Assembly (NCBI GenBank): GCA_963828195.1
Contig: CAWHDT010000001.1
Span: 320,001 to 384,000, forward strand
Reading direction: 5' to 3'
DNA length: 64,000 nucleotides
DNA from: Candidatus Bathyarchaeota archaeon
Lineage (GTDB): Archaea; Thermoproteota; Bathyarchaeia; Bathyarchaeales; Bathycorpusculaceae
Positions 1-27,396 of the stretch are shown here, piece by piece (position 1 is the stretch's first letter; the number at the start of each line of letters is the position of its first letter). A program made the translations under genes and the position numbers. Under the pieces are notes generated by a model. That model did no database searches. It was given only the letters and a program-made list of their open reading frames with translations, and was not told where the DNA came from.

Positions 1-1195
1 TGCCTTGGTCGGATCCGAAAAACCCATAATCGAAGGCATCCGCGACATAGTGGAGAAACGTACAGGCATACCGGTTATTTGCCCGAAGCAACACTGCGCC
101 ATTGAAGTCAGCAAAATTGAGCAGCGCCTGCTATTCCAAGAGATTGCCCCCGAAGCCAATCCACGTTTCAAAATCTTTGATCCAGCCGACTACAAAGGCG
201 AAGCGGAGGTTAAAAGCGCCGTGTATCGTTGGCTAGATGAACTTGACAATCAAGCAGTTGTGAAGCCTGATAAGCCTGCTTTGGGAAAGGGCGTGGGCGT
301 CTGGGGCGACCACTTCGCAACGCGTGAGCAGCTTTTTGAGAATTTCATGTCCAATTTCAAGTATGGCTCTGTTATTATTGAAGAAAAAATTGATGGGGAA
401 GAATCAAGTTTCATGGCTTTCTGCGACGGCAAACACTTTATTCCTCTGCCAGATACACGCGATTACAAACGCGCTTTCGACGACGATAAAGGTCCAAACA
501 CCGGCGGCATGGGCTCCTACAAAGACGCAGGTTACACTTTGCCCTTCTTGACAGCCTCCGAGCGTGAGCAGGAGCTTGCGTTAGCTAACAAGATTTTCAA
601 GGGTTGGTGTTCCAAAATCAACGATGACACCGCCCTCAGAGGTGTGCCTCTGTATCTTGCTTTCATGCACACCGGCAAGGGCATTAAGGTTCTTGAGATC
701 AACAGTCGCCCAGGAGACCCAGAAATAATAAATTTGTTAGCGCTAATTCAAGATGATTTTGTTGAGTTATGCTTAGAAATGGTTGAGGGCAGCCTAGCGA
801 ACGTCAAATTAAAGAACGCTGCCTCCGTCTTAATTTACAAAGTTCCCTCGGACTATGGAGGCTACGCAGACAATTTCCCAGATAAGATTGATGAGCAATC
901 AATTAACGGTCCAGTTGACCTTTCAAAAGCCCAAGCATTAATTACAAAATACGGCAACAACATCCGCGTTTACCCCGGCTCAATGGAAACAAGAGACGGC
1001 AAAAACTACGCTCTTAAATCACGAGCCGTCGGCGTCCTAGGCATCGGGGACAGCATTGAGGAGGCACGCCAAATCAGCCAAGAAGGCGCCAAAGCAATTA
1101 CCGGCGGAGCATTATGGAACCGAACCAACGTTGCCTCAGAGGAGCACATAGCAAAAAGCATCCGCCATATGGAGAGTTTGAGGGGCAACATGTGA
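1..1195 (+). CDS. purD: phosphoribosylamine--glycine ligase, 5' end outside window
   Basis: ATP-grasp motifs VVKP..GKGV, IIEEKIDGEE, DYKRAFDDDKGPNTGGMGS, EINSRPGDPE. Confidence 0.93.
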   Translation, partial: ALVGSEKPIIEGIRDIVEKRTGIPVICPKQHCAIEVSKIEQRLLFQEIAPEANPRFKIFDPADYKGEAEVKSAVYRWLDELDNQAVVKPDKPALGKGVGVWGDHFATREQLFENFMSNFKYGSVIIEEKIDGEESSFMAFCDGKHFIPLPDTRDYKRAFDDDKGPNTGGMGSYKDAGYTLPFLTASEREQELALANKIFKGWCSKINDDTALRGVPLYLAFMHTGKGIKVLEINSRPGDPEIINLLALIQDDFVELCLEMVEGSLANVKLKNAASVLIYKVPSDYGGYADNFPDKIDEQSINGPVDLSKAQALITKYGNNIRVYPGSMETRDGKNYALKSRAVGVLGIGDSIEEARQISQEGAKAITGGALWNRTNVASEEHIAKSIRHMESLRGNM

Positions 1196-2274
1196 AGCGC
1201 ATCTTCATATCTGACTGCGAGGGACCAATCTCAAAAAATGACAACGCCTTCGAGTTAGCCACCAACTTTATTCCAAACGGCGACAGCCTTTTCGCTAACA
1301 TCAGCAAATACGATGATGTGCTGGCGGATGTGCTCCAAAAACCAGGCTACTCCGCCGGCAGCACGCTAAAATTAATTTTACCCTTCTTCAAAGCCTACGG
1401 CGTAACCGACAAGCAGATGGAAGATTTCTCAGCCAACAACATCGTATTAATCGCCAACAGCCAAACCACCCTGAACCACGTACAAGCCATAGCCCACGCG
1501 TTTATCGTCAGCACCAGCTACCAACACTATATCAAAGCCTTATGCAGAGCACTCAACTTCCCCTACAAAAACACGTACTGCACAAAAGTAACCCTTGACA
1601 AATGCGCCATCACCCCCCAAGAAAAAGACTGCCTGAAAAAAATAGCCCAAGAAATTACCCAAATGCACCTAATCGATATCCCTCAAGACGCAAAAACCCT
1701 TAAAGATTTTTCACATGGTGACCAAGCGGCTATTACGCGTTTAGATGAGATTTTCTGGAGTGAAATCCCAAAGATGTTCATTGGCAAATTCCTCGTGGAT
1801 GTGGTGACGGTCGGCGGGGAACAGAAAGCTGAGGCAATCCACGATGCCGCGAAGCGGTCGGGAGCAGACTTAGCGGATGTCATGTATGTGGGAGACAGTA
1901 TAACGGATGTGGAAGCCTTCAAGCTGGTTCGAGCAAACGGCGGCTTAACCGTATCTTTCAACGGCAACATTTATGCAGTTAAAAATGCTGAAGCAGCGGT
2001 TATGTCGGAAAACAGTCTTGTCACAGCTGTGATTGCTGACTTGTTCTGCAGATTCGGAAAAGAAAAAACAATAAGCGCCGTTGAGTCATGGAGTTACGAT
2101 ATTCTCAAAAAAAGCGGCGTAAACGATGTTTTGTTGAGACAGTTTTCAGGTTTGTATGCTGATGCTCTGCCCAAAGCCCAAATAGTAACTGCCCAAAACA
2201 TGGAATCGCTTATAAAAGAAAGCAGCGAATTCAGAAAAAAAGTTAGAGGCGTAGAAGTTGGGGGGCTCGGATAA
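1192..2274 (+). CDS. HAD-superfamily phosphohydrolase (EhaR/COG4030-like)
   Basis: Motif I variant FISDCEGP, motif IV YVGDSITD. Likely start is GTG 1192, overlapping the purD stop (GTGA), not the track start at 1114. Confidence 0.8.
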   Translation: MKRIFISDCEGPISKNDNAFELATNFIPNGDSLFANISKYDDVLADVLQKPGYSAGSTLKLILPFFKAYGVTDKQMEDFSANNIVLIANSQTTLNHVQAIAHAFIVSTSYQHYIKALCRALNFPYKNTYCTKVTLDKCAITPQEKDCLKKIAQEITQMHLIDIPQDAKTLKDFSHGDQAAITRLDEIFWSEIPKMFIGKFLVDVVTVGGEQKAEAIHDAAKRSGADLADVMYVGDSITDVEAFKLVRANGGLTVSFNGNIYAVKNAEAAVMSENSLVTAVIADLFCRFGKEKTISAVESWSYDILKKSGVNDVLLRQFSGLYADALPKAQIVTAQNMESLIKESSEFRKKVRGVEVGGLG

Positions 2275-3185
2275 TGCCCGTTGAGGCGGAAATAGAAGAT
2301 ACCTTTGCTGAAGCGTTTAGAGGAATCTTTTGCAGAATCATCGTAACAGCAGACGACGTGGAAACTTTGCGTAAGGCCGCTGAAGACTCAACGGCAACTC
2401 CCTCCGTTGTGATCGGCAGGACGGAAGGAGGCGTCGAGAAATACCTCAGCAAAAAAGAAACCCCTGACCAGCGGATAGGCGCATTACTGCAGCTCTGGGG
2501 ACAAATAAACCCCAAAAAAAGTTTTGAGCAGTCTCTGAAAAAATTTGAAACCGAGCTTTCATACCGTATTCGCCAGGACATTTTGGTAAAGCCATTCACC
2601 GCCGTCTACGACGCTTTGCCTAAGGCTGAAGGCAAAATCGACCTGATGGAGACAGTTGGGCACTGCGGCGACGGGTACGAGTGGGTTGAAAAGCGGCATG
2701 GAAGAGAAGTCATCGTTGTCCCGCTGATGGTTCCAGACTTCATCATTGAACAGTGCATAGGTTACAGCTACGGCGTTATGGGCGGCAACTTTTGGGTAAT
2801 GTGCAAAACAAAACAAGCCTTACAGCAAGCAGCAGAGAAAGCTTTGGCAGCTGTCCACAAAATGCCTGGCATAGTTACGCCTTTTGATGTATGCTCAGCA
2901 GGCTCCAAGCCAGAAACGCATTTTCCAAAGATTGGACCAACCACAAACCATCAGTATTGCCCCTCTCTTAAGGCGCATTTAGGTAAAGAATCCCTTGTCC
3001 CAGAAGGTGTTGGTTATATAGCTGAGGTCGTTTTTGATGGTGTTTCTTTAGATGCTGTTAAAGAGGCGACAAAAGCAGGAGTCAAAGCAGTGTTAAGTAT
3101 TGATGGAGTTGTAAAGGTTTCCGCTGGCAACTACGGCGGCAAATTAGGAGACTACAAAATATTTTTGCGGGAGCTTTTTCCATGA
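2274..3185 (+). CDS. ftr: formylmethanofuran--tetrahydromethanopterin formyltransferase family protein (Ftr or EhaS-like paralogue)
   Basis: IEDTFAEAF N-terminus, GVMGGNF, AGSK, PTTNHQYCPSL, VSAGNYGGKLG. TAATG overlap with upstream gene. Confidence 0.85.
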   Translation: MPVEAEIEDTFAEAFRGIFCRIIVTADDVETLRKAAEDSTATPSVVIGRTEGGVEKYLSKKETPDQRIGALLQLWGQINPKKSFEQSLKKFETELSYRIRQDILVKPFTAVYDALPKAEGKIDLMETVGHCGDGYEWVEKRHGREVIVVPLMVPDFIIEQCIGYSYGVMGGNFWVMCKTKQALQQAAEKALAAVHKMPGIVTPFDVCSAGSKPETHFPKIGPTTNHQYCPSLKAHLGKESLVPEGVGYIAEVVFDGVSLDAVKEATKAGVKAVLSIDGVVKVSAGNYGGKLGDYKIFLRELFP

Positions 3186-4096
3186 TTAAATTTGACGTCG
3201 TCGGTTTCGGCGCGCTCAATGTTGACATGCTTTTCAAAGTTGACAAGCTTGCGGGAGCTGAAGAAGAACGCTTCATCGAAGACTACACTGAAGCTTGCGG
3301 CGGCTCAGCAGCGAACACAGTTGTTGGGTTGGCGAGGCTGGGCTGCAAAACAGGTTTCATAGGAAAAGTAGCTAATGATCGAGAAGGCAAAATGCAAATG
3401 GATTGTTTCAGCAACGAAGGCGTCAACACCAGCGGCATCATTGAGGCAAAACAGGGCAAGAGCGGTTCAGTGATGGGTTTCGTGGACAAGAAAGGTGCCC
3501 GGGCGTTGTACATTAACTCAGGCGTCAACGACACAATTGAGCCCCGCGAAATAAACTACAGTTACCTTTCGGAGACAAAATTCCTGCATCAATCCTCTTT
3601 TGTCGGAGAAAAAAGTTTTCGTGCACAAAAAAAGCTTTTGGCAGCTTTGCCCAGCGATGTTAAAATCAGTTTTGACCCTGGCTCAGTTTACGCTCAGAAG
3701 GGTTTTGCAGCCATAGAGCCGCTAATCAGAAGCTCTTATGCCTTGATGCCTAACGCTGTTGAACTTGAACTGTTAACGGGGGAAGCTGACTACCGCGACG
3801 GCGCAGATCTGATGATTGGGCTGGGCGTCAAAATTGTCGCCGTTAAACTTGGAAGCAACGGCTGTTATGTCACCGACGGCGAGCAAAAGCTAAGGATTGA
3901 ACCATTCAAAGTAAAGGTGGTTGACACGACCGGTGCCGGAGACGCTTTCTGCGCTGGTTTCCTCTACGGTTTAATCAACAGCAAAAGCCTCTATGAGTGT
4001 GGTCGACTGGGAAATTTTGTTGCATCCCGAAGCGTCACCGCGATGGGTGCCCGCGTTGGCCTGCCGTACGCGAAGGATTTAGCATTTCTTTATTAA
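3182..4096 (+). CDS. PfkB/ribokinase-family (nucleoside/sugar) kinase
   Basis: GGSAAN...LARLG and VDTTGAGDAFCAGFL signatures. ATGA overlap with upstream gene. Confidence 0.92.
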   Translation: MIKFDVVGFGALNVDMLFKVDKLAGAEEERFIEDYTEACGGSAANTVVGLARLGCKTGFIGKVANDREGKMQMDCFSNEGVNTSGIIEAKQGKSGSVMGFVDKKGARALYINSGVNDTIEPREINYSYLSETKFLHQSSFVGEKSFRAQKKLLAALPSDVKISFDPGSVYAQKGFAAIEPLIRSSYALMPNAVELELLTGEADYRDGADLMIGLGVKIVAVKLGSNGCYVTDGEQKLRIEPFKVKVVDTTGAGDAFCAGFLYGLINSKSLYECGRLGNFVASRSVTAMGARVGLPYAKDLAFLY

Positions 4097-4900
4097 ATTG
4101 TCAATTATGCTTTGGAAAATCAGTTTTCCGTCGCCATACTGCAGCATTTGCTGTTGGCGTGTCCAGTCGGGTTGCTGCCACCAGTACATGGCTCTCTCGG
4201 GATGCGGCATTAAACCGAAGATGTTTCCTTCCCTGTTGCATATGCCTGCGATGTCGTGGAAGGCGCCGTTGGGGTTAGCTGGATATTTGCCGTCGGCGAC
4301 GTTGCCGTTTTTGTCGCAGTAGCGGAAAACAACCATGTCCTCATCTATCAGCCTTGCAAGTATTTCTTCTTCCTTATCTTTTGGAAACAGCAATCTGCCT
4401 TCTCCATGGGCAATCGGCATCTTGACCACTTTTCCAGCTGGAATTTTGCTTGAGAACATGCATTTGCCTTTATTTTCGTGTTTGAGGTAAATCCACTGGC
4501 ACTTGAATCCCGCTGGCTCGTTTGTCGTTAATGTCGCTTCTGGATACTTGCTCATTCCCTCAAGTCCTGGAAGCAAGCCGTATTCAACCAGAATCTGGAA
4601 GCCGTTGCATATGCCCAGAATCGGTCTTCCTTCATCAATAAAGGTTTCAATTTCCTTCCCTAACTTGGCGCTGAGCCACCTTGCAAAAATGACTCCTGAA
4701 CGCACATAATCGCCGAACGAGAAGCCGCCTGGAAAAACCATCACCTGATAATCCAGCAGGTTTTTGCGTTTTATCAATTCGTTAACATGCAAGGTTTCTG
4801 CTTGAACGCCCAGCTCCAAAAAAGCCCTGTGAGTTTCAGCGTCGCAGTTGGTTCCGCCGACACGCAAAACGCAGACCTTGATTTCTTCTTGTAACATCAA
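4079..4900 (-). CDS. purQ: FGAM synthase glutaminase subunit
   Basis: GTNCDAET, PGGFSFGD, LGICNGFQIL, GLMPHPER. Confidence 0.96.
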   Translation of the reverse strand: MMLQEEIKVCVLRVGGTNCDAETHRAFLELGVQAETLHVNELIKRKNLLDYQVMVFPGGFSFGDYVRSGVIFARWLSAKLGKEIETFIDEGRPILGICNGFQILVEYGLLPGLEGMSKYPEATLTTNEPAGFKCQWIYLKHENKGKCMFSSKIPAGKVVKMPIAHGEGRLLFPKDKEEEILARLIDEDMVVFRYCDKNGNVADGKYPANPNGAFHDIAGICNREGNIFGLMPHPERAMYWWQQPDWTRQQQMLQYGDGKLIFQSIIDNLIKKC

Positions 4901-7278
4901 TATTCCCCGCTTAACGTTTTTTTCCAGCTATGCCTCAACTCAGCAAGTGAAGCGTCAACGACTGTTTTTTGGTTTAAACCGTGGATTAGCAGTTTTTGGT
5001 CTTTAGTTACTTTGCCGATTTGAGCACAATTTTTGCCCTTCATTAACGCTTCAAATTGGTGTTTGTCGGTTTCTGAGACTTCAATGAGGAAGCGGCTGTT
5101 AGATTCTGAAAACAGTACAAAGTCATTTCGCGCAAGCTCTCTGCCAAGCACTTTAGCTAAATCCAGCTCCAAGCCCAAGCCGCCTGCAAACGCCATTTCC
5201 GCCGCCGCCACCGCCAATCCGCCTTCAGACAGGTCGTGGCACGACTTGATTAAGCCCAAGTCAATGGCTTTTGTTACGGCTTTGAATGTGCGTTTGGCTT
5301 TCGCTCCCTTCACTTTGGGAACGCTTGCGCCTAAGCAGCCTCTGAGTTTGTAGTATTCTGAACCGCCCAGTTCATTGAATGTTTCTCCGATTAGGTAGAG
5401 CAGGTTGCCGTGTGCTTTCAAATCCATAGATGTAGTGACTTGAATATTGGGAATTATACCTACAGCGGTTATCAGAAGCGTCGGCGTGACGGGACCCATC
5501 GGGGACTCGTTGTAGAGGCTGTCTTTTCCCGAGATAAACGGCGTCCTAAAAGCTGTTGCGAAGTCATAGCAGGCTTCACAGGCTCTCACAAGCGAGCCTA
5601 ACCGCTCCGGTTTCTCTGGGTTGCCCCACGTGAAGTTATCCAGCAGCGAAATTCTTCTTCCGCCGACGGCAACGTTGTTTCTGACTGCCTCATCAATAGC
5701 TGAAGCAGCCATCCAGTAAGCATCAATCTTTCCATAATTCGGGTTCATCCCGCATGAAATAGCCAAGCCCTTCCATGAGTCATCGAGTGGTTTCAGAACC
5801 GCCGCGTCGTTTGGTCCCGCGTACTCACCCTGTAAGGGTTTTAGCGTTGTATTTCCTTTTACTTCATGGTCATATGTGCGAATCACACTTTCTTTGCTGG
5901 CGATGTTTGGTGCAGAAAGAAGCTGCAGCAGGGTTTCAGTTAGGTTTTCTGGCTGCGAAAACTCGGGCTCCAAGAGCTTGAAGGTTTCAATGATTGCTGT
6001 TTTCGTGCTGCTGCAGGGGTTAAACAGAAAAGTCATGTCTATATCGGCTACTTTCTGGCCGTTGAAATTAAGCTGTAGACGACGTTGGGTTGTTAGTTTG
6101 CCTATTGCTGTGGCTTGAACGTCTTCTTTCTCAAAAATTGCCATAACTCGCTCAAGGTTTTCGGGCGGAACTGTTATGAGCATTCTTTCTTGGGATTCTG
6201 ATATGTAAATTTCCCATGGAGCTAAACCCTGATACTTCAACGGCACCTTATCTAGTTCAACGATTGTTCCGCAGCCGAATTTTTCAGCTGTTTCGCCGAC
6301 TGCCGACGACAAGCCTCCTCCCCCGAGGTCAGTTGTTGAAGACGCTAATTGCACGTCACGGATTTCTATTATTGCCCGCTTAACTTTTTCTTCTTCAATC
6401 GGGTCAGCAATCTGCACGGCGGGGCGAGAGATTTCTTCTGATTTTTCGGTTAGTTCGGCTGAGGCGAAGGTTACGCCGTGTATGCCGTCGCGCCCTGTTT
6501 TTCCGCCTGCCAAAACGATTATGTGTTCGGGTTTGGCGTTTTTGACGAATTTGTTTAACGGTAAGAGTCCTATGCACCCGCAGTACACTGTGACGTTGCC
6601 TGTGTAGCTTTCGTCAAAGTAGATTGCCCCGTTGACAGTGGGGATGCCCATGTTGTTGCCATACGCGCTGATGCCTGCAGTGACGCCCATGTACACGTAT
6701 TTTGGGTGTTTTATACCGGCGGGCAACTTTTTGTAATCGTAATCTAGCGGTCCGAAGCCTAAAACGTCGGTGCAAGCGATTGGGTCAGCCCAGACGCCTA
6801 AGATGTCTCGAATTACGCCGCCGACACCTGTTGCTGCGCCGCCGAAGGGTTCAATTGCGGACGGGTGGTTGTGTGTTTCCACTTTTGCCGCTATTCCATA
6901 GCCCTTGTCGAAGCGAACGATACCGGCATTGTCTTCGAAGACGCTGAAGCACCATGGCGCCCTGATTTCTTTGGTGGCTTTTGCAATGTAGGTTTTGAAT
7001 AGGCTGTCGATTTCTCTGTCGCCGATTCGGATTTTTCCTTTGAAGGTTTTGTGGCAGCAGTGTTCTGACCATGTTTGGCTGATTGTCTGCAGTTCCACAT
7101 CGGTCGGGTTCCTGTCTTCCTTAATAAAATAAGCTTGTGTAGCCTTCATTTCGTCTAAGCTTAATCCTAAGGCGAGTTCGCTGCTGATTTCGACTAGTTG
7201 CTGGTCGCTGGCTTTTGCCAACGCAACCTGGAGGAGTGCGCTGCCGGCTTTGCTTTGGATGTAGAGGTTAGCGTTCAT
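4897..7278 (-). CDS. purL: FGAM synthase subunit PurL
   Basis: WSEHCCHK, ETHNHPSAIEPFGGAATGVGG, SESQERML, ISGKDSLYN. Confidence 0.97.
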   Translation of the reverse strand: MNANLYIQSKAGSALLQVALAKASDQQLVEISSELALGLSLDEMKATQAYFIKEDRNPTDVELQTISQTWSEHCCHKTFKGKIRIGDREIDSLFKTYIAKATKEIRAPWCFSVFEDNAGIVRFDKGYGIAAKVETHNHPSAIEPFGGAATGVGGVIRDILGVWADPIACTDVLGFGPLDYDYKKLPAGIKHPKYVYMGVTAGISAYGNNMGIPTVNGAIYFDESYTGNVTVYCGCIGLLPLNKFVKNAKPEHIIVLAGGKTGRDGIHGVTFASAELTEKSEEISRPAVQIADPIEEEKVKRAIIEIRDVQLASSTTDLGGGGLSSAVGETAEKFGCGTIVELDKVPLKYQGLAPWEIYISESQERMLITVPPENLERVMAIFEKEDVQATAIGKLTTQRRLQLNFNGQKVADIDMTFLFNPCSSTKTAIIETFKLLEPEFSQPENLTETLLQLLSAPNIASKESVIRTYDHEVKGNTTLKPLQGEYAGPNDAAVLKPLDDSWKGLAISCGMNPNYGKIDAYWMAASAIDEAVRNNVAVGGRRISLLDNFTWGNPEKPERLGSLVRACEACYDFATAFRTPFISGKDSLYNESPMGPVTPTLLITAVGIIPNIQVTTSMDLKAHGNLLYLIGETFNELGGSEYYKLRGCLGASVPKVKGAKAKRTFKAVTKAIDLGLIKSCHDLSEGGLAVAAAEMAFAGGLGLELDLAKVLGRELARNDFVLFSESNSRFLIEVSETDKHQFEALMKGKNCAQIGKVTKDQKLLIHGLNQKTVVDASLAELRHSWKKTLSGEY

Positions 7279-7526
7279 TTCTGCTCCTCAACGGTTACTG
7301 TGTAGTTGTCTTTAGTTGGGTTTGCCAAAAGGCGCTTGCTCATTTCTTCAGCTTTTTCTTTAGCTTCTTGGAGTTTTGGCGCTTCCAAGGTGACTGTGTA
7401 AACTTTGCTAACATTTACCGCTTGCACTTTGTAGCCGAGTTCTTTCAGCAGGCGCGCGGTTGTTTCCCCTTCAGGATTGCTGTGACCGGGTTTAAGGCTA
7501 ACTTCAATTTTAACGCGGTATTTCAT
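7275..7526 (-). CDS. purS: FGAM synthase subunit PurS
   Basis: LKPG..NPEG and LLANP motifs, 83 aa, overlaps purL start. Confidence 0.93.
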   Translation of the reverse strand: MKYRVKIEVSLKPGHSNPEGETTARLLKELGYKVQAVNVSKVYTVTLEAPKLQEAKEKAEEMSKRLLANPTKDNYTVTVEEQK

Positions 7527-7585
7527 AAAGCCCTTAAATTAAGCAAGAAGATTTAAACGCTTTTGTACTAAAAAAAGCAAAAAGT

Positions 7586-8665
7586 TTATGTCAGCAACAT
7601 CTTTTTGTCTTGATAGCGGATTTCCACGGTTTGTCGAGAAGTTACTTTCCCGATTATTTCAGGTTTAACGCCTTCTTGCTCAAGCGCACTCATGGCTTTG
7701 TCGATTTCTTTTTTATCCACAATTAACCCAAACCCCCAGCCCATGTTGAAGGTTTTGAACATTTCCTCGTCACTGATGCTGAAGCCCAGTTCAGACGCTG
7801 TCTTTTGAATCAACCCGAATATTGGTTGAGGATTGAAGTGGTTGAATTCAAAGCCTATGCCAGGCGAGGAACCTGCAAGATTATTGAATTTCGTGTAGGC
7901 GTCGCCCGTGATGTGTACGGCTGCTTTGACCTTAACTTCGTTTGCCAGCGCAAGGACGGGTTTGACGTAAATTTCTGTGGGTTCAAGAGCTTCAAGAACG
8001 ATTTCTCTGCCTAAGCCTTCTGGGACGTCATCCGGCTCGTATTTTCCGCCCCACTGCTTGAACAATATTTTTCTTGCCATCGTTATGCCGTTGCTGTGCA
8101 ATCCGCTGCTGGGTAAACCTATAATCGGGTCGTCAGGCTTGATGTTTTCGCCAGTTATGATTTCTTGCCTCGCAACTTCACCGACGGAAGCCACCACCAT
8201 GTCAAAACCTGCGTTTTCAGCTAAGCCCTTTATTATTTCAGCTACGTCGCCTGTTTCGCCGCCTGTAACTGGGCATTGGGCTTGAGCGGCGCCCTGCATG
8301 ATTCCTTTCAGCCACTCTTTCACCAGCCCTGGGTTGCTTTCCTGCGCATGAATGTTATCTGCTATCGCAAGCGGTTTAGCTCCTGAACGGATGACGTCGT
8401 TGACCGCCATGGCTACTGCGTCGACGCCGATTGTGTCATATTTCCCCGCCAGCTGGGCTAAAAGAACTTTGGTGCCGACGCCTTCGATGACCAAGTCGAG
8501 ATAGGTGTTTTCTGTAATTGGAAAAATGTTGCCGTATGGCAGATGCATGACGCCGCCGAATAGGCTGTATTTGTAGGTTTCTTTGAGGTTTTTGAGCGCT
8601 TTTTTGGATTCCACGCGTTGCTGGCGGTTTACGCCTGCATCTGTGTATGTGTAGTTTTTAGGCAA
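7586..8665 (-). CDS. purM: AIR synthetase
   Basis: YTDAGV, GVGTK, GGETGD, SSGLHSNG, HITG, TFNMGWG. Confidence 0.95.
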   Translation of the reverse strand: MPKNYTYTDAGVNRQQRVESKKALKNLKETYKYSLFGGVMHLPYGNIFPITENTYLDLVIEGVGTKVLLAQLAGKYDTIGVDAVAMAVNDVIRSGAKPLAIADNIHAQESNPGLVKEWLKGIMQGAAQAQCPVTGGETGDVAEIIKGLAENAGFDMVVASVGEVARQEIITGENIKPDDPIIGLPSSGLHSNGITMARKILFKQWGGKYEPDDVPEGLGREIVLEALEPTEIYVKPVLALANEVKVKAAVHITGDAYTKFNNLAGSSPGIGFEFNHFNPQPIFGLIQKTASELGFSISDEEMFKTFNMGWGFGLIVDKKEIDKAMSALEQEGVKPEIIGKVTSRQTVEIRYQDKKMLLT

Positions 8666-12556: not shown

Positions 12557-14928
12557 CTAGTTAGGCTGAGTTGGTTGTGTTTGCGGCGATTGAATGCTAA
12601 ACTGTTGAAGGGGTTGGATTTTTTTCCATTCTACAACTACATTCTTTTTCAGCGACTTCTCAAACACATCTTTTTTCTTGTTTACCGCGTACTCTTCTAA
12701 AACTGGGTTCTCACGAACCGTCGCCAAAAGGGTCACGGTTTCAAGATTTACCCGGGTTTGCACTTCTTGAACTATAGATTGATGTGCAAAGTCCAAGGCG
12801 TCTGCTAAGCGCAAAATTCCAGCCAAAATCGTAACCTTACGCTTTAATTCACGGCTCAGCGACTTAAAGTTATAGTGCTTATACTGTGGAACGTTTTTGC
12901 GGTGATACCGAGCTACGTCCCCTATGACTCGTCTCTCGATAGAGGTGAATGGCAATCGGGTCTCGTTTAGAATTAAGTTTAACGATTTCTTATGGTGTTC
13001 TTTCCGTCCTTGTGACAACCCTATATCGTGGAGAATCGCTGCGCATTCGAGCCAGCAACGTTCCCTTTTGCCGAGTTTGTGTAGGTCCTGCAAGGCGTCA
13101 AAGAGTTCCAGAGCCAATTTTCCCACTTGCTCGGAATGCTGCGTGTCTGGCCAATATTTCTTTGCAACTCTTCGGGCGCTTCTACCCATCAAAGTGCATT
13201 TTCTTTCCATGTCGTTCTCTCGAGCTTTATCCTGCGCGACTATATCCTCAAGAGGTAGCCCGCGAAGCAGCATCTGGGCATAACTTTCGGGAGCTCCAAT
13301 CCTTCTAAGGTTGTCGGCTGCTGCCTCTACGTCATAGCTAACCCTTATCAGCTCTACAGAGAATGGGTTGGCAGTTATCATCGCATAGGCAGCTTGAGGT
13401 TTTCCGTCACCGGGCCTTCCCACGCTTCCTGGGTTAATTAATAAAGCCCCCTCCGCCTTTTTTGTGAATTGCTCACGTGACTGACCCAAAACAATTATGT
13501 CTGCCCCCGCGGTTTTGGCTAATTCTTGGAATTTCTCGTCTGGCGTATCATGGTCAAGCTGTTCGTTAACTGAGTCGAGGGTTTCGTGAATCATGACAAG
13601 TTTTTTGTGAGCGATTTCAAGCTCAAGCTTTGAACGCAAGGTTCGAAGATAAGTTTCATAAGCTTTTGACAAGGTCTCTCTCAAGTAGTGCAGAGCGAAT
13701 TTTTTTGGGTCTTTCCCACGGTTATTTCTGTCCAAGACTTCAAGGTCGAAATTTCCGACTATGCTAAGCGCGCTCTTCAGGTACAGCGTCTGTATGACTT
13801 CGTTAGGAAAGGCTCCGAACCCAATTATGTCGCCAGCGTTTAGAAAAACAGTTATTCCTCGGCGTTCCGCATCCTGCAGTACCGCTTCAAGAGCATTCAG
13901 GTTAGCCTGAATATCCGCCATTACCGCAATTTTCACGTAGGGATTCTCCAACTGTGCCTTCGCTCTATACGCCACGGCTGCAAACCCCGCGCTCGCATTT
14001 TTCCTCAATTCCTCAAAGACGTTTTCGCCCTTCCTTTTATCCCAAAATCTTACAAAGTTTTCGTAATGGTTTTTTCTTTTTTCCTTAATGTAGTTAAGGA
14101 ATTTAAGAAGATCCTGATTGCCCTCAGCAATCGCTTTTTCGTTATGTATTTCATTTATGAATTTTGGAATCTGCTCGATCCACACGTCGCAGTCGTGCAT
14201 TTCGCCAAGCGTGTCCTGAAAATTCTTCATCATTTTTATTTCTTCAGAGAGTTCGTCTTGGTAGAGTGGTGCAAAAGTTTCCATTGTGTATCGGAGCCAT
14301 TTGGCTCGAATGCGCATTGCATGATGTTTAAGAACTTCGTTTTCCTTGTGGACGTACTCTTCCATGGATATGAACTCGTCAAGTTTTGGGGATATCTGCC
14401 AGAAGGCTTTTTCGCGAACAGCGAACAAGTCAAACGAGGTGCTTGTGGTTTCTTTAACGATTTTTTCGCAGTAATAGGCTGTTTGCTGCAAAACCCTTGA
14501 CTCTTCAAGCTCCTGCAACCCGCCAATTATGTTTGATTGCATTTGAGCTCTTTGGTCGATGTACGACTCAAGAAGGGCATCCATCCCCGTTTTGGGCTCG
14601 ATAGGTGAAAGCCGTTCAATATAGTCTTTTATAACGGAGATTTGCACGTCCAAATCTCTTGCGCTGCCTAAGAACTGAGTAACTTTCTTGATTTCGCTTA
14701 GCCATTTTTTGTAGCTTTTTTTGGAAAGCATTCTTTGAAAAGAGGCATGGTGGCTCTTATTCTGCGGGAGGTGACCCGCATTTTATGGACGTATTCTATG
14801 TCTTCGCTTTTTTCAACCCCCGCGATTTGGGCTTCAATGGTTTGAAGAAGTTTCGCAAGGGCTTCAGCTCCGAAGCGGCAGTAGTTAGAATCAGTCGAGG
14901 TACCGTTAAGGTCGAGGCGAGTATTCAT
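12557..14928 (-). pseudogene. CHAD + metallophosphoesterase-like + HD fusion, split by a frameshift at an A7 run (14716-14722)
   Basis: ORF 14698-14928 (CHAD start, HKMRVTSRR) joins ORF 12557-14731 if one A is added, and is then collinear with the paralogue at 18470-20809. Could be a pseudogene, a recoded gene or a sequencing error. Confidence 0.75.
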
Positions 14929-15139
14929 AACAAATTCATCGATATAGTAAGCTACTTATCAAGTTTCTTCTTTCTTTTTAATCCAGCATAACTCACACAA
15001 AACACTCAAAAAAGCAGCTTTCGTGAAAATAGCACTCGCTCGTTCGTTGGAATCTATAGACCATGCGCATTATGCTATATAGTTGCCGTCTCATCTACAT
15101 TGGAAATAGTTAAATCTCTCCTATGATTCCTAGTGAATT

Positions 15140-15739
15140 ATGAATTCTAAAACTTTAATCGAAACAGGTTTCTGCGAATGGGTCCCGCTGAAAACGTTAA
15201 CAGTGTCAAATTTGCCTTCAGATAAAGGTAGTGTCATCGTGATTGTGGATAAAGAGCTATCTGGAAAACCAGAATCAGATATTCTATACATAGGGCGAAC
15301 AAAAAAACCCGCTAAAAGAATTATGGGCGGGTATTTGGCAGGGTATGGTGGAAAAAACACCCAGAAAATCAACCAAATGCTTTTCGACGAAGGTTACATA
15401 GAAAAAGCCGCCATAAGCTGGATCGTAACCGACAAACCAAGAATCATGCAGGAAGAGCTGCTTGCCAAATTCAAAGAAGATCATGGTGGCTTTCCAATTT
15501 GGAACGCCAAAAAGAAACTCAACGTTAAGCCTGAAAAAGCTCCAGTTCTAAAGCCTAAAGCCGCTCCGAAAGCTAAAGCTGCTCCAGCAAAAGTCGTTCC
15601 AAAACCAAAGATTGCGTCAGCAAAGAAACCCGCGGCAAAAAAGGAAACCCCAACTAAAGCCGAGATGGATAGCAAAGGGGAAACTGTCCCAGAAACGCCC
15701 GAAAAGGCAAAAACTTCAGATACTCAAATGGCAACTTAA
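15140..15739 (+). CDS. GIY-YIG-like N-terminal domain with Lys/Ala/Pro-rich histone-H1-like tail
   Basis: ILYIGRT...R motif; tail KPKAAPKAKAAPAKVVPKPKIASAKKPAAKK. Confidence 0.65.
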   Translation: MNSKTLIETGFCEWVPLKTLTVSNLPSDKGSVIVIVDKELSGKPESDILYIGRTKKPAKRIMGGYLAGYGGKNTQKINQMLFDEGYIEKAAISWIVTDKPRIMQEELLAKFKEDHGGFPIWNAKKKLNVKPEKAPVLKPKAAPKAKAAPAKVVPKPKIASAKKPAAKKETPTKAEMDSKGETVPETPEKAKTSDTQMAT

Positions 15740-15763
15740 AACCAAGGCTCTCCGCCAACTCTC

Positions 15764-15783
15764 TTTTTCCTCCCTTTTTCTTT
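15764..15783 (+). terminator. pyrimidine/T-tract archaeal terminator
   Basis: TTTTTCCTCCCTTTTTCTTT just after stop at 15739. Confidence 0.4.
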
Positions 15784-15967
15784 GGGGAAAGTGAGCGTCC
15801 TACTCTTTCAAGAGCCGTTTTTTAAATATGACCATTATTTTTTTGCCGGTTAGAATAGAATACCCGTTTGGTCTGTTTTTAGTTTGTTGCTTAGTTGACT
15901 TACCGCACTCTTAGACACAGTAGCTATTATTAGGCGGCGCAGCTTATTTTCAGTGAGGCTGTTTTAA

Positions 15968-16870
15968 TTGTCGATGGATTCGGAAGATTTCAAGGTGCCG
16001 ACTGGAAAAAAGATTAGTTTAAAGGATTTTGATCCTGCTTGGATTCCGAAATGGGCTGAGAAAAAGGAAGCTGAAGAGGGCAAAAAAGCAACAAAAGATC
16101 AGGGGTCAGCTATTCTTGAGGCGAACAGGCAGAAACTCGTTGAGATGCAGGCGCTGTTTTGGGCAAGTCACACCTATGCTATACTGATTATTCTGCAGGG
16201 GATGGATGCAGCGGGAAAAGACGGTACGATAAGTCATGTGCTGTCCGGAGTTAACCCTCAGGGCTGCCAAGTTACGGCTTTTAAACAGCCGTCTGAGGAA
16301 GAACTGAACCATGATTTCTTATGGCGCAACGCTAAAGCTCTTCCAGAAAGGGGGATCATCGGAATTTTTAACCGATCGTATTATGAAGATGTGTTGATTG
16401 TTAAGGTGCGCCCGGAGGTTTTGGGACGAGAAAAGCTGCCGTTTGAAGCCGAAGGAACGGCGTTTTGGGATCAGCGGTACGAGGATATTAACATGTTTGA
16501 GCGGCACCTAATTCGAAGCGGCACAGTGGTCTTGAAGTTTTTCTTGAATGTTTCAAAAGACGAGCAAAAGCAGCGTTTCCTCAAACGGCTGGAAGATCCC
16601 ACAAAAAACTGGAAGTTTTCGCCAACTGACCTGTCCGAACGCTCTAAATGGGCTGATTACATGGATGCGTACGAAGACATGGTTAATGAAACCAACACAA
16701 AATGGGCACCGTGGTACATTATTCCCGCGGACAAAAAATGGGTTACCCATGCCTCGGTGTCTGAGGTTATAGTTTCGCAAATCGCTAAGCTGGATTTGAA
16801 ATATCCCGCATTGAGCAAAGAGCAGAAGGAAGCTTTGGAAAAGGCTAAGGCTGAACTGGAAAAAGAATAA
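15968..16870 (+). CDS. ppk2: polyphosphate kinase 2 family (class III-like)
   Basis: Walker A QGMDAAGKDG; FNRSYYEDV; KNWKFS; PWYIIPADKKW. Start may be ATG 15974. Confidence 0.93.
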   Translation: MSMDSEDFKVPTGKKISLKDFDPAWIPKWAEKKEAEEGKKATKDQGSAILEANRQKLVEMQALFWASHTYAILIILQGMDAAGKDGTISHVLSGVNPQGCQVTAFKQPSEEELNHDFLWRNAKALPERGIIGIFNRSYYEDVLIVKVRPEVLGREKLPFEAEGTAFWDQRYEDINMFERHLIRSGTVVLKFFLNVSKDEQKQRFLKRLEDPTKNWKFSPTDLSERSKWADYMDAYEDMVNETNTKWAPWYIIPADKKWVTHASVSEVIVSQIAKLDLKYPALSKEQKEALEKAKAELEKE

Positions 16871-16901
16871 AACAAAAACAGTGCATTTGGAGGCTGCCTA
16901 T

Positions 16902-18485
16902 TTACTGGGCACTCTGCGTAACCGTGCATTTAGCCTCTAGCTGCTTCTCGAAGGCTTCATAGAAAGCCTGCCGATTCTGTATGATGCTCCACTCTTCAAG
17001 GCTGCAGTCAGAGTCTGAGCAAAACGAAAGCAGTATCTGGTCTTTGTTGACTTTGACGAATTCTACGTTCTTTACTAGTCCGCTGTGGCTTCGATCAAGC
17101 TTTTCTGCGAATCGGAGAAACGTTGAAAGAATGGCGATAGTCTCGTTGGTTTTTTCGTCTAGTCCTGTGATTTTCAACGCTTTTTTGGAAGGTAACTTTT
17201 TCCTGTGGAAACGTGCTATGTTAGCTATTATCTGGATTTCTTTTGGGTCAAAACCAAGAAGCTCAGCGTGGCAAATGATATAGTGGGAATGAAGCTGATG
17301 ATCGTTAAAAGATAGAAAATCGCCGACATCATGCAATGTTGCAGCATGCTTCAAGAGCTCTTTCTCCGTCTCACCCAGATTGTGTAGCCCAATTTTTTTT
17401 GCGCTATCAAAAAGCTGCAGCGCCAAAGAAGCCACAGTTTCCGAGTGTTTCTCATCAAAGTTGCATGATCTGCCTAAATGCAAAACGCTTCTGTTCCTCA
17501 TAGGCGCCTTTTGTAGCTGTCGGAAGCCCTTAAACTTCGATAAATATTCAACAAGCAGACCATCCCGCAGTTCTCTGTGAGTGATGCAGATTTCTTCCAA
17601 ACCGAACTCTTCCATGATCGCCTCAATTATGGCTGCTCCGGCAATTAAGATGTCAGCTCGATAAGGGTTAATTGCAGGTAGTTTTTTTCTTTCTTCAAGA
17701 GGAAGCGAGTAGAGAATCGGCGCTAACTTTTTGAGGTTCTTCCTTGATAGAGTGAGAACGCCTCCGTTGCCGTTTTTCTTGAAAAGTTTGTTGGCGATTT
17801 CCGCGAGGTTTATGACTGTGCCTGAGGAACCCCACGCCCGCCTGACGCCGTACTTGAGGACTCTTGCTTTAACCGCATGGACCTTTTGGCTAGAGTAATT
17901 TTTTATTTCCTCGTACACGCCGCTTTCTATGGGTCCAGTCCAGCCTTCGCCGATGAATTGAGATGTCAGCCTAATTGCCCCCAACTTAAGACTGTTCACG
18001 TAAAAGCATTCATGCTGATTTCCAATGGCAATTTCGGTGCTGCCGCCGCCTAAATCTATGAAAATAGCTTTTTCTTCGCCTATGTCTATTCCGCTTGAAA
18101 CGCCCAGCCAAATCAAGCGGGCTTCTTCTTGTCCCGAAATCACATCTACTTTGAGTCCTGTTTCCTTGAAAAGTTTCTGAAGAAACTCCGATCGGTTTAG
18201 CGCTTCCCGAATGGCTGAGGTTCCCACGGCTATTATTTCAGTGGCGCCATAAGTTTTGGCTAAGTCAGCGAATTTTCCACAGACAAAAATGGCGCGTTCC
18301 ATGGCTTCTGGTCTTAGTATGCTGTCTTTGAATTCTTGTTCGCCGAGTCTGATAACTTCTTTTTCTTGGCTGATGATAGTGTAAGAGAAATTAGGGTTTA
18401 TCCTCACTACTAAAAGGCGCACTGCGTTTGTTCCAATGTCGACGAACCCGACTACGTTTCCAACAGTTTTCACCGTTGCTTCCAT
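16902..18485 (-). CDS. ppx: exopolyphosphatase Ppx/GppA family with C-terminal HD domain
   Basis: DIGTNAVRL, TSAIREA, SGQEEARL, DLGGGSTE, LRDG, LHDVG. Confidence 0.93.
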   Translation of the reverse strand: MEATVKTVGNVVGFVDIGTNAVRLLVVRINPNFSYTIISQEKEVIRLGEQEFKDSILRPEAMERAIFVCGKFADLAKTYGATEIIAVGTSAIREALNRSEFLQKLFKETGLKVDVISGQEEARLIWLGVSSGIDIGEEKAIFIDLGGGSTEIAIGNQHECFYVNSLKLGAIRLTSQFIGEGWTGPIESGVYEEIKNYSSQKVHAVKARVLKYGVRRAWGSSGTVINLAEIANKLFKKNGNGGVLTLSRKNLKKLAPILYSLPLEERKKLPAINPYRADILIAGAAIIEAIMEEFGLEEICITHRELRDGLLVEYLSKFKGFRQLQKAPMRNRSVLHLGRSCNFDEKHSETVASLALQLFDSAKKIGLHNLGETEKELLKHAATLHDVGDFLSFNDHQLHSHYIICHAELLGFDPKEIQIIANIARFHRKKLPSKKALKITGLDEKTNETIAILSTFLRFAEKLDRSHSGLVKNVEFVKVNKDQILLSFCSDSDCSLEEWSIIQNRQAFYEAFEKQLEAKCTVTQSAQ

Positions 18486-26746: not shown

Positions 26747-26901
26747 AACCAAAATAACCCCAAAATATCTCTTTTTTCTTTTTTGTATTAAAAAACTCTA
26801 TTCTTACGGAAAATGACAAAATATCCGTGAATAAAAGTTAAAAAAGTTTCTAAGCAGTCTTAATTATCACAGCGATGCACTTTTATGTATATTATTATCT
26901 T

Positions 26902-27390
26902 TCAGGTGAATTGCTCTGATGTTATTTGCCCTTGCTGTCTGTTTTTTCTCCTTTTAACTAAAATTACCACTATTGTTGAAGTTATTATTACCGTAGAGAT
27001 CGTGGCTAAAGCTTCTTCTATGAAAGTTTGTTGGGAGACAAATGTTTGCTCTTTTTCAGACGCATTGTCAAGTAAGTTAGAAGCGTTCTGTAAATCTGTT
27101 GTTGCCGCTTGCCATTGACTCTGGTTAGCTAACGAAGTTGCCTGGTTATACTCTTCCGTGGCGTTTTGAAGGAGTGATTTTGCGTCGGCGTTTTGATAAT
27201 TGGCTTTTTGGGCTTCAGCTATTTTGTTTGTAACTTGGGGTAGCAGCTGAACATATGTTGCCTCAGCTTCAGTATACACCTGTATTGTTGATGGTTGGGA
27301 ATTCCATGTAACGTTTTGAGGCGTTTGTTCCTCTTCTACCCCCTCGACGTGGACATAGTATGTATGTGGACCAACGGTTTCTTGAGGGGG
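26902..27390 (-). pseudogene. 3' remnant of a membrane-anchored surface protein
   Basis: Helical domain + C-terminal TM + KRRKNR tail but no signal peptide. The 5' part of track ORF 26902-27519 is the antisense of a more plausible + strand gene. Confidence 0.5.
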
Positions 27391-27396
27391 AACATA

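Follow-up and report, generated by a model that had tools for sequence, protein, structure and literature searches.

Which enzyme formylates glycinamide ribonucleotide (GAR), the third step of purine synthesis, in archaea that lack both PurN and PurT? The accessible text of one paper leaves the GAR formyltransferase unidentified in Archaeoglobi, Methanopyrus kandleri, and Methanothermobacter thermautotrophicus and its relatives (PMC3261824), and the accessible part of another describes ANME-1 as being without PurN and PurT (PMC9012536). The question is raised again by a 64,000-nucleotide stretch of a Bathyarchaeia genome (the window), in which purD is joined to the genes for a HAD-superfamily hydrolase, a divergent paralogue of formyltransferase Ftr (Ftr2), and a PfkB-family kinase. 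With this trio, the long-missing step gains a testable candidate, consisting of a second, divergent methanogen-type formyltransferase accompanied by a phosphatase and a sugar kinase. A literature search found no prior assignment of the trio or of Ftr2 to GAR formylation.

Gene order and junctions

The window opens within purD (positions 2 to 1195, plus strand; GARS_A, 122 bits), which encodes the GAR synthetase of step 2 and is truncated at its 5' end by the window start. The full gene (G000:C1:319777-321195) matches TIGR00877 at 240.9 bits over model positions 3 to 422 (cutoff, 288), and upstream of it lies purF (TIGR01134, 313 bits; cutoff, 350); CODH/ACS genes are also found upstream of the trio, about 5 kb away. 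On the same strand as purD follow an EhaR-like HAD hydrolase of 360 amino acids (1192 to 2274), with a match to PDB 1Y8A and the motif I residues D8-x-E10-G; Ftr2, of 303 amino acids (2274 to 3185; FTR, 148.8 bits; FTR_C, 179.9 bits); and an EhaT-like PfkB kinase of the ribokinase family, of 304 amino acids (3182 to 4096; PfkB, 178.9 bits, full length). Read directly from the sequence, the junctions are a GTGA overlap between purD and the HAD gene (1192 to 1195), TAATG between the HAD gene and Ftr2 (2272 to 2276), and an ATGA overlap between Ftr2 and PfkB (3182 to 3185). The longest open reading frame for HAD begins at an ATG at 1114; the aligned orthologues begin MKR(I/V)F(I/V)SDCEGP, so the start is the GTG at 1192, as the original prediction had taken it.

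The stop codon of PfkB (4094 to 4096) falls at an 18-nt overlap with the 3' end of convergent purQ. The minus strand carries purQ (4079 to 4900; GATase_5, 230.8 bits), encoding the glutaminase subunit of the step 4 enzyme FGAM synthase, purL (4897 to 7278; AIRS, AIRS_C, and FGAR-AT_linker domains) and purS (7275 to 7526; PurS, 73.8 bits) for the same step, and purM (7586 to 8665; AIRS and AIRS_C domains) for the AIR synthetase of step 5. A translationally coupled operon, purF-purD-HAD-Ftr2-PfkB, is thereby observed to converge on purQ-purL-purS-purM. Domain matches and overlapping stop and start codons agree with the families, reading frames, and coupling to purD originally predicted, and the opposite-strand genes from 4079 to 8665 bear out the predicted convergence.

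This arrangement is nonrandom across the class. In 80 Bathyarchaeia loci whose Ftr2 is 68 to 85% identical, HAD lies directly upstream of Ftr2 in 73 of the 76 with room for it, and a 74th locus (L085) has it beyond a 1.8-kb insertion. PfkB is downstream in every locus with room (75/75), purD is upstream in 70 of 72, and 58 of 70 have a convergent purQ no more than 3 kb away.

Formyltransferase content of the source genome

A profile search of the source genome, which is 96% complete, recovered no PF00551 match, and hence no PurN anywhere in the genome and, as had been predicted, no purN in the window. PurT was not found in the genome either: the best match to the PurT model is CarB (46.6 bits; cutoff, 502), and the second, at 39 bits, is an MfnD-like ATP-grasp protein (ligase) adjoining an MfnA-like decarboxylase. 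PurH and FTHFS were looked for in the same genome and not found, and two tandem PurP-like genes are present. A canonical Ftr1 is encoded at C5:662092-663183, apart from the purine locus, so the Ftr gene in the window is not the sole copy; Ftr1 scores 306 to 315 bits to the solved archaeal Ftrs versus 167 to 184 bits for Ftr2. The original proposal, that the Ftr paralogue formylates GAR or its riboside, was to be abandoned if the genome encoded purN or purT, if this ftr was the only canonical copy, and if the linkage to purD was not kept in relatives. None of the three holds, the last on account of the 70 of 72 loci given above, and the proposal is supported, with the formyl donor and the riboside route remaining inferences.

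Distribution of the trio and of PurN and PurT

Within a sample of 151 Bathyarchaeia genomes, Ftr2 occurs in 59, all of which (59/59) also encode HAD. A Formyl_trans_N (PF00551) protein accompanies Ftr2 in only one of these (G130) and a true PurT in none, the sole match to the PurT model (G001) being a PurK adjoining purE. The 92 genomes without Ftr2 comprise 58 with PF00551, 11 with a PurT-like gene, and 23 with neither, and purD is also missing from 20 of these 23. HAD is absent from all 87 genomes that are without both Ftr2 and a divergent PurN-like enzyme, including those with canonical PurN or PurT only. Two of the 20 (G014 and G148), from families that otherwise bear Ftr2, have lost the trio jointly with purD and kept Ftr1, and many other Ftr1-bearing genomes are without the trio.

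Among the 301 Thermoproteota genomes of a phylum sample, 36 outside Bathyarchaeia bear an Ftr. PurN is present in 13 of the 36; a PurT-like gene is present in 18 of the remaining 23, located beside purD in 14 of the 18; and a further 3 are without purD. The only two genomes with purD but neither PurN nor PurT (G377 and G397) are also the only two with a full-length Ftr2. In G377, HAD and Ftr2 overlap by 4 nt and CODH/ACS genes lie beside Ftr2/Ftr1; in G397, PfkB and HAD are adjacent and Ftr2 is elsewhere. Neither genome keeps the three genes as one contiguous set, and the trio persists in this other class despite rearrangement.

The profile of the trio against absence of purN and purT, which the original prediction had put forward as a check, is thus observed to be strongly complementary in both samples. 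Because the genomes share ancestry, they represent few independent gains and losses; those that can be pointed to are in the mixed families f2, f11 (seven genomes with a PurT-like gene, two with Ftr2, one with PurN, and one with none), f20, and f21 and, in another class, family f47. A PF00551 match is not proof of PurN, since many of the matches in family f18 are PurN-like at about 80 bits and, in the one locus inspected, were not beside pur genes. Nor is exclusivity absolute, given G130 and, in the available portion of Chadwick et al. (PMC9012536), the co-occurrence of Ftr2 with PurN in ANME-2a/2b. Three genomes that are 98, 90, and 94% complete (G041, G050, and G095) have purD and no step 3 candidate that we could find.

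Displacement of Ftr2 within the module

Five genomes encode HAD without Ftr2, and each has a divergent PurN-like enzyme instead. In three (G034, G028, and G124) the gene order is purF-purD-PurN'-HAD-PfkB, the top PDB matches of PurN' are GAR transformylases, and in the two such loci long enough to show it, FolD is next in line after PfkB. In the other two (G002 and G010), the PurN-like gene is beside purD, with HAD and PfkB elsewhere in the genome. Ftr2 is therefore seen to be displaced by a PurN-like enzyme inside the same module. Because HAD and PfkB accompany a folate-type enzyme together with FolD, their function does not hinge on H4MPT chemistry in itself, which complicates the rationale of the original prediction.

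Features of Ftr2, HAD, and PfkB

Ftr2 and the characterized Ftr/FhcD enzymes (PDB 1FTR, 1M5H, 1M5S, and 6S6Y) belong to the same two-lobe fold family, at about 36 to 40% identity. The window copy scores 333 bits to NCBIfam PRK02114 (cutoff, 297), and E251, at the catalytic Glu position, is retained in 19 of 19 Ftr2 sequences. In contrast to Ftr/FhcD, Ftr2 is set amid purine genes rather than C1-pathway genes and falls in a separate clade, parted from Ftr1 by a branch with SH-aLRT support of 99. It has 13 specific conserved residues, such as C131 (F in Ftr1) and G221-P222, and R100 is invariant in Ftr2 and mostly G in Ftr1. Judged from these sequences, Ftr2 is an ancient paralogue of the Ftr of methanogenesis and the Wood-Ljungdahl pathway. 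The accessible part of PMC9012536 places a divergent Ftr2 clade in ANME-1, ANME-2a/b, Archaeoglobales, M. kandleri, and M. marburgensis.

HAD matches the Pfam HAD models weakly (25 to 28 bits) and PDB 1Y8A (Archaeoglobus fulgidus AF1437) at 107.7 bits; D8, E10, G11, S107, G208, G209, K212, G234, D235, S236, and D239 are invariant among 21 sequences. The best NCBIfam match of PfkB, whose translation contains a GAGD motif, is ribokinase, at 166 bits and under the cutoff of 299.65. Catalytic residues are retained in all three proteins. Against PDB entries, PfkB scores up to 101 bits to ribokinases and 62 and 69 bits to 1TYY and 2C49, which we take to be the Salmonella aminoimidazole riboside kinase and the Methanocaldococcus jannaschii nucleoside kinase MJ0406. 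These two kinases offer precedent within the family for rephosphorylating riboside forms of purine-pathway compounds, although PfkB is closer to ribokinases and its substrate is not established.

The resemblance to the genes that close the Methanothermobacter eha operon, also part of the original prediction, holds at the level of families. Homologues of HAD carry the JGI name "energy-converting hydrogenase A subunit R," and the ESM Atlas has a matching cluster from Methanobacteriota under the name "EhaR." For the other two, the portion of Kaster et al. (2011; PMC3087415) available likens EhaS to Ftr and EhaT to ribokinase, both cotranscribed with ehaA-R; orthology of Ftr2 and PfkB to these proteins has not been shown. 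Unlike its Methanothermobacter counterparts, the trio is attached to purF-purD and has no hydrogenase genes in its vicinity.

A proposed third route for GAR formylation

The module quite probably constitutes a third, nonhomologous solution to step 3, with Ftr2 as the catalyst; this reaction is inferred, and no protein of the Ftr2, EhaR-like, or EhaT-like kind has a measured enzyme activity. That the operon as a whole provides steps 1 and 2 plus a noncanonical step 3 is likely; what is catalyzed, which donor is used, and what HAD and the kinase act on are all inferred. Standing in for PurN and PurT, Ftr2 would take the formyl group off a C1 carrier of the organism itself (N5-formyl-H4MPT is the most probable donor, formyl-methanofuran a possible one) and pass it to the glycinamide amine, in the position otherwise held by methanofuran's aminomethyl amine. 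HAD and PfkB would be fixed partners of this transfer, and the role we favor for them, tentatively, is a dephosphorylated shunt: HAD would convert GAR to glycinamide riboside, Ftr2 would formylate the riboside, and PfkB would use ATP to convert the product to FGAR, the substrate of the PurLSQ encoded next door. For a central pathway such a bypass would be out of the ordinary, and we regard it as doubtful.

PurN (PF00551), the folate-dependent GAR transformylase, performs the reaction proposed here, and sister lineages carry a PurN-like gene in the same operon slot behind purD, but its fold is unrelated to that of Ftr2 and its donor is N10-formyl-tetrahydrofolate. PurT solves the same step without folate, is likewise found beside purD, and spends one ATP, the cost also expected of the riboside route, but has an ATP-grasp fold and draws on free formate. 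PurP, the archaeal formate-dependent AICAR formyltransferase, sets a precedent for replacement of a folate-dependent purine formyltransferase by an unrelated enzyme; it differs in being an ATP-grasp enzyme that acts at step 9 with free formate.

Alternative explanations

A variant that differs only in the roles of the partners, and that we consider a substantial possibility while stopping short of preferring it, has Ftr2 formylate GAR ribotide itself, with HAD and PfkB serving repair of misformylated or dephosphorylated intermediates, supply of ribose to R5P/PRPP, or control of the purine pool. By the established thermodynamics of the Ftr reaction, formyl transfer from amine to amine, or from N5-formyl-H4MPT, should be near equilibrium and could be pulled by the ATP-dependent PurL; where the two partners occur with FolD and a PurN-like enzyme of the folate type, an ATP "pull" is unneeded, leaving the riboside route without a thermodynamic reason. 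The dispersed genes in G377 and G397 and the top match of PfkB to ribokinase also fit direct formylation, but that match is far below its cutoff, and stop/start overlaps flank Ftr2 on both sides. HAD tracks the formyltransferase type so exactly (every Ftr2 genome, none of the 87 without Ftr2 and PurN-like enzyme) that a general housekeeping role is unlikely.

It is improbable that the trio serves something other than step 3, such as synthesis or modification of the C1 carrier or pentose phosphate supply, with GAR formylated by an unrecognized enzyme such as a PurP paralogue (a formate- and ATP-dependent ATP-grasp enzyme). HAD phosphatases and kinases are plausible candidates for unassigned late steps of H4MPT biosynthesis, and the genome has its PurP-like pair. 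The accessible text of Brown et al. (PMC3261824) gives no demonstrated function for PurP cluster II proteins, but it also has cluster Ib and II pairs coexisting with PurT in Pyrococcus and Sulfolobales, so such pairs do not act like a stand-in for PurT. Genomes with Ftr1 are H4MPT users, and the absence of the trio from many of them argues against cofactor synthesis. The loss of the trio with purD from two that retained Ftr1, and the presence of a PurN-like enzyme in the operon slot of Ftr2, also count against a role outside step 3. We give still less weight to Ftr2 as a mere second formylmethanofuran:H4MPT isoenzyme of the Wood-Ljungdahl pathway, near purD by historical accident: it has both Ftr lobes, the subfamily score, and the catalytic Glu, with CODH/ACS genes in the neighborhood, but it belongs to an ancient clade apart from every solved Ftr, and its distribution goes with purD and with missing PurN/PurT rather than with Ftr1 or the Wood-Ljungdahl pathway. 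Least credible of all is that the trio contributes subunits to an energy-converting hydrogenase of the Eha type, as the Methanothermobacter names and cotranscription would imply: no locus that we annotated has hydrogenase genes beside the trio, whose neighbors are purF, purD, purQLSM, CODH/ACS, and, in some loci, FolD, and the three proteins belong to soluble-enzyme families with their catalytic motifs intact.

The trio and its place in the purine locus

The window corresponds to C1:320001-384000 of the source genome (G000; 2.83 Mb, 96% complete), which carries purD at window positions 2-1195, followed by genes for a HAD-superfamily hydrolase of 360 amino acids (aa) (1192-2274), a divergent Ftr paralog of 303 aa, termed Ftr2 (2274-3185), and a PfkB kinase of 304 aa (3182-4096). 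The overlapping stop and start codons that were predicted to join these four genes could be read at all three junctions (GTGA, TAATG, and ATGA), and the trio converges, as had also been predicted, on purQ, purL, purS, and purM, which occupy 4079-8665 on the opposite strand. Outside the window, 5' of purD, lie the CODH/ACS genes cdhA to cdhE, one ATPase gene, and purF, with 56 bp between the end of purF and purD. With purF and purD on one side of the trio and purQLSM on the other, the locus covers purine synthesis steps 1, 2, 4, and 5. These genes and CODH/ACS are the trio's neighbors in this locus; the trio does not terminate an eha operon here. The CODH/ACS cluster (L087, G000:C1:306001-321300) is complete, with cdhA, the epsilon subunit, cdhC, cdhD, and a cdhE-like gene, accompanied by two CooC/ParA-type ATPases, and lies ~5 kb upstream of purF-purD.

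This arrangement is conserved across 80 loci with close relatives of Ftr2, in which Ftr2 is 68 to 85% identical to the window's protein, and identities fall to 51% for the HAD protein and 57% for PurD and PfkB. Where the contig leaves room, PfkB lies downstream of Ftr2 in 75 of 75 loci and the HAD gene upstream in 73 of 76, to which can be added L085, where it sits behind a 1.8-kb insertion. The linkage to purD, central to the original prediction, is also retained in relatives (70 of the 72 loci with room), and a convergent purQ occurs within 3 kb in 58 of 70. In two loci (L043 and L055), the upstream HAD gene and purD are both missing. All 80 loci come from Bathyarchaeia-type contigs, one of them (L010, DATIXS010000302.1) a HAD-Ftr2-PfkB contig binned within a "Candidatus Acidoferrum" (Acidobacteriota) metagenome-assembled genome (MAG).

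Features of the three proteins

Ftr2 possesses both lobes at full length (FTR, PF01913, 148.8 bits; FTR_C, PF02741, 179.9 bits) and passes the cutoff for NCBIfam PRK02114 (333 bits; cutoff, 297), while scoring 236 bits, under the cutoff of 292.6, against the fhcD equivalog model. It falls outside the clade of characterized Ftrs: the branch to the 38 sequences of canonical Ftr (Ftr1), including those of G000 itself and of genome G377 as well as Planctomycetota- and Lokiarchaeota-labeled proteins, has an SH-aLRT support of 99. E251 of Ftr2 aligns with the Glu of Archaeoglobus fulgidus Ftr, and a glutamate occupies the catalytic position in 19 of 19 Ftr2 and 30 of 37 Ftr1 sequences. The catalytic glutamate of M. 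kandleri Ftr is Glu245. In FhcD, it is Glu252 (PMC6926001). At 13 positions, the residue conserved in Ftr2 is rare in Ftr1, among them C131 (F in Ftr1), G221-P222, W75, and R49, and R100 is invariant in Ftr2 and mostly G in Ftr1. No informative partners of Ftr2 were found among the longer Ftr-domain representatives, all of which are FhcA- or FhcC-type or lack a second Pfam domain. Prediction of a complex between an Ftr2 dimer and the HAD protein gave a score of 0.00, which is evidence neither way.

The HAD protein is homologous to the uncharacterized A. fulgidus protein AF1437 (PDB 1Y8A), and 21 sequences share its four catalytic motifs (D8, S107/T108, K212, and D235/D239). Motif I reads D-x-E-G, not D-x-D; the D-x-E form also occurs in enolase-phosphatase E1. 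The cap contains the invariant acidic residues D17, D41, D42, and E154. Its predicted likeness to EhaR is borne out at the level of annotation: among the 120 homologs listed, all those with JGI names are called "energy-converting hydrogenase A subunit R," and in the ESM Atlas, a Methanobacteriota "EhaR" cluster ranks fourth for this protein, with a score of 0.98. The kinase matches PF00294 over residues 5 to 295 (178.9 bits) and has the GAGD anion-hole/catalytic Asp motif, visible as TTGAGDAF in the translation, but falls under the cutoff of every NCBIfam equivalog, the best being ribokinase TIGR02152 (166.4 bits versus 299.65).

The source genome lacks a recognizable enzyme for the first formylation

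The original prediction had missed PurN and PurT, the known enzymes for the formylation of GAR to FGAR (step 3), in the window only; they are missing from the genome as well. No Formyl_trans_N (PF00551) match occurs in the trio or anywhere in G000, and no protein exceeds the TIGR01142 cutoff of 502 for PurT, the best matches being CarB at 46.6 bits and, at 39 bits, an ATP-grasp protein of 409 aa. Searches for PurH and FTHFS in G000 also found neither. A separate canonical ftr does exist (Ftr1, C5:662092-663183), so the window's Ftr is not the sole copy: Ftr1 scores 306 to 315 bits against three solved archaeal Ftrs, as opposed to only 167 to 184 for Ftr2. Two tandem PurP genes (G000:C5:338708-340347; 252 and 225 bits to DUF1297) are also present. 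This gene content leaves the organism with a canonical Ftr1, a formate-dependent PurP for the second formylation, and a first formylation without a recognizable enzyme.

The PurP-like pair probably corresponds to the cluster I/cluster II pair treated by Brown et al., of which the second type has no known function. The 409-aa ATP-grasp protein was rejected as a PurT, being MfnD-like and adjoining an MfnA-like decarboxylase. In its locus (L004, G000:C5:118350-121982), the MfnD-like ligase lies between this PLP decarboxylase and a hydantoinase_A-family protein; the locus is likely a methanofuran biosynthesis cluster and indicates that the organism makes methanofuran.

Ftr2 and the known enzymes have complementary distributions

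Among 151 Bathyarchaeia genomes at least 80% complete (G000 included), matches to the window's Ftr2 are bimodal: one group starts at 46% identity and 260 bits and was called Ftr2, and the other does not exceed 42% identity and 214 bits. By this measure, 59 genomes encode Ftr2 (in one, G058, as a fragment at a contig end), and all 59 also encode the EhaR-like HAD protein. The suggested anticorrelation of the trio with purN and purT is upheld: a PF00551 protein occurs in only 1 of the 59 (G130), beside FolD and 5-formyl-THF cyclo-ligase, and a true PurT occurs in none. The only match to the PurT model within this set, in G001, is PurK, located beside purE.

The 92 genomes without Ftr2 comprise 58 with PF00551 matches, 11 with a PurT-like gene, and 23 with neither. 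In 20 of these 23, purD is also missing. Two of the 20, G014 (family f2, 98% complete) and G148 (family f20), retain Ftr1, and every other sampled member of their families has Ftr2. The other three (G041, G050, and G095) have purD but no candidate gene. In family f11, which is mixed, seven genomes have a PurT-like gene, two have Ftr2, one has PurN, and one has none. Not all PF00551 matches are proven PurN, and since the genomes are related, independent events of gain or loss are few.

The pattern was also assessed in 301 Thermoproteota genomes, in which 36 outside Bathyarchaeia have an Ftr match. PurN is present in 13 of these, and 18 of the other 23 have a PurT-like gene, which by coordinates is no more than 1.4 kb from purD in 14 genomes. 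Three further genomes with neither PurN nor a PurT-like gene lack purD, leaving two, G377 and G397, in which purD is present and both known enzymes are absent. A full-length Ftr2 (359 and 241 bits) occurs in these two alone among the 36. G234 gave a third Ftr2-like match, but only a fragment, which continues in frame into a thermosome gene on a 6-kb contig (L090, G234:C129) and was excluded as an assembly chimera; this fusion and the Acidobacteriota placement of L010 look like assembly or binning artifacts. In several of the purD-linked PurT-like genes, the match to the model is split in two inside a ~470-aa frame (e.g., G280:C1:155462-158373), suggesting an insertion.

A PurN-like enzyme can take the place of Ftr2

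The HAD protein occurs without Ftr2 in five Bathyarchaeia genomes (G002, G010, and G034 of family f8; G028 and G124 of family f21). In three of these, the operon reads purF-purD-X-HAD-PfkB (L091, G034:C8:1-16000; L092, G028:C17; L093, G124:C162), with FolD after PfkB in L091 and L092, the only two that extend far enough. G002 and G010 differ in having HAD and PfkB elsewhere in the genome, away from purD and its neighboring PurN-like gene. X is a divergent PurN-like protein of 281 to 330 aa, scoring 42 to 61 bits to PF00551 and 74.5 bits to TIGR00639 (cutoff, 150). Its best PDB matches are Escherichia coli GAR transformylase, and it keeps the catalytic stretches NLHP and LDxGP. The N-terminal loop reads SSGRD, where E. 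coli PurN has GNGSN. Hence, either of two unrelated formyltransferase families can follow purD, with the same two partners. Of the genomes with neither Ftr2 nor the divergent PurN-like enzyme (87, including all those with only a canonical PurN or PurT), none encodes HAD, and HAD and PfkB track the noncanonical formyltransferases exactly. The PurN-like proteins form their own subfamily, with the N terminus IGWFSSGRD and a C-terminal extension, and L091 also contains a divergently oriented PurH1-like gene.

Relatives outside Bathyarchaeia

In G377, a very divergent HAD-like gene of 361 aa overlaps the Ftr2 start by 4 nucleotides; its product resembles the window's HAD protein in the motif III/IV region (E = 3e-5) and reaches 288 bits against the HAD profile. 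Ftr1 and CODH/ACS adjoin this HAD-Ftr2 pair, with Ftr2 and Ftr1 directly beside cdhC/D/E. In G397, Ftr2 stands alone, and PfkB and HAD are adjacent on another contig; a metagenome scan recovered two loci of this lineage, both with Ftr2 alone, as in locus L089.

Relatives on the Ftr2 side of the tree are labeled in NCBI as ANME-1 "Methanospirare," Syntropharchaeum, Hydrothermarchaeota, Altiarchaeota, and a Methanocellales MAG. The two checked, from Methanocellales and Methanospirare, score only 190 to 213 bits to solved archaeal Ftrs. In the ESM Atlas, Methanobacteriota is the commonest phylum in the second-nearest cluster to Ftr2, which is a lead only. Atlas clusters of EhaR-like HAD proteins occur in Bathyarchaeota, Methanobacteriota, and Thermoplasmatota (88 members) and also in bacterial Thermodesulfobacteriota (94 and 100 members). 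The link to Euryarchaeota rests on passages in the literature, source labels, and the Atlas lead, without data on EhaS or EhaT orthology.

A candidate for the missing step

The operon position of the trio, its complementary distribution, its loss jointly with purD, and its displacement by a PurN-like enzyme point to GAR formylation as its task, in the absence of any biochemistry. Ftr reversibly transfers a formyl group between N5 of tetrahydromethanopterin (H4MPT) and the aminomethyl amine of methanofuran, and we infer that the glycinamide amine is a plausible, similar acceptor for this chemistry.

The simplest single pathway to employ all three enzymes is the dephospho shunt of the original prediction, which remains possible at best. 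In this scheme, the HAD protein would dephosphorylate GAR to its riboside, Ftr2 (or, in some lineages, the divergent PurN-like enzyme) would formylate the riboside from a carrier-bound formyl group, and the EhaT-like PfkB would rephosphorylate the product, at a cost of one ATP, the same as for PurT. We keep this assignment tentative because the same partners serve a folate-type enzyme that needs no thermodynamic push and because a role of HAD and PfkB in repair or supply cannot be excluded. That the shunt, and no direct formylation of GAR, is the missing step 3 in Bathyarchaeia as well as Methanobacteriales, Archaeoglobi, Methanopyrus, and ANME-1, with EhaR/S/T a purine branch drawing formyl groups from the pathway replenished by Eha, is likewise a conjecture that we regard as doubtful.

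How archaea without PurN and PurT formylate GAR has been unresolved since the work of Brown et al. (2011; PMC3261824) or earlier. Available parts of a more recent study (Chadwick et al. 2022; PMC9012536) restate the gap for ANME-1, Archaeoglobales, and Methanobacteriales, which are reported there to lack both enzymes, and report that an Ftr2 clade of divergent sequence is represented in ANME-1, ANME-2a/b, Archaeoglobales, M. kandleri, and M. marburgensis; those passages leave the two observations unconnected. EhaS is described as Ftr-like and EhaT as ribokinase-like, and both as cotranscribed with eha, in excerpts of Kaster et al. (2011; PMC3087415), which are inconsistent in that another passage gives the Ftr-like protein as EhaT. 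We found no literature assigning Ftr2 or EhaS to GAR formylation, most subscription journals and supplements being outside the search. M. stadtmanae, M. smithii, M. ruminantium, and M. thermautotrophicus all belong to the Methanobacteriales. They are termed "Methanomicrobiales" in the accessible text of PMC3261824 and are cited as Methanobacteriales in that of PMC9012536.

The comparative evidence turns this gap into a concrete and cheaply testable candidate, an Ftr paralog and its two constant partners. Should the assignment hold, a third, unrelated enzyme family performs a universal step of central metabolism, purine synthesis is tied directly to the methanofuran/H4MPT C1 pool, and three "hydrogenase subunits" of a model methanogen are reexplained. 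Thousands of genes at present named Ftr, HAD hydrolase, or ribokinase would also have their annotation corrected, altering metabolic reconstructions of Bathyarchaeia, ANME, and methanogens.

Other gene clusters in the window

Cellulosome-type modules occur in this archaeal genome as a dockerin protein (25247-26746) and a cohesin protein (29764-31569), within a region (25247-31569) in which the adjoining large open reading frames have no Pfam match. A polyphosphate gene cluster at 12557-22913 encodes PPK1 (20793-22913), PPK2 (15968-16870), Ppx/GppA (16902-18485), and two proteins that fuse CHAD, metallophosphoesterase, and Ppx domain III/HD modules (12557-14731 and 18470-20809).
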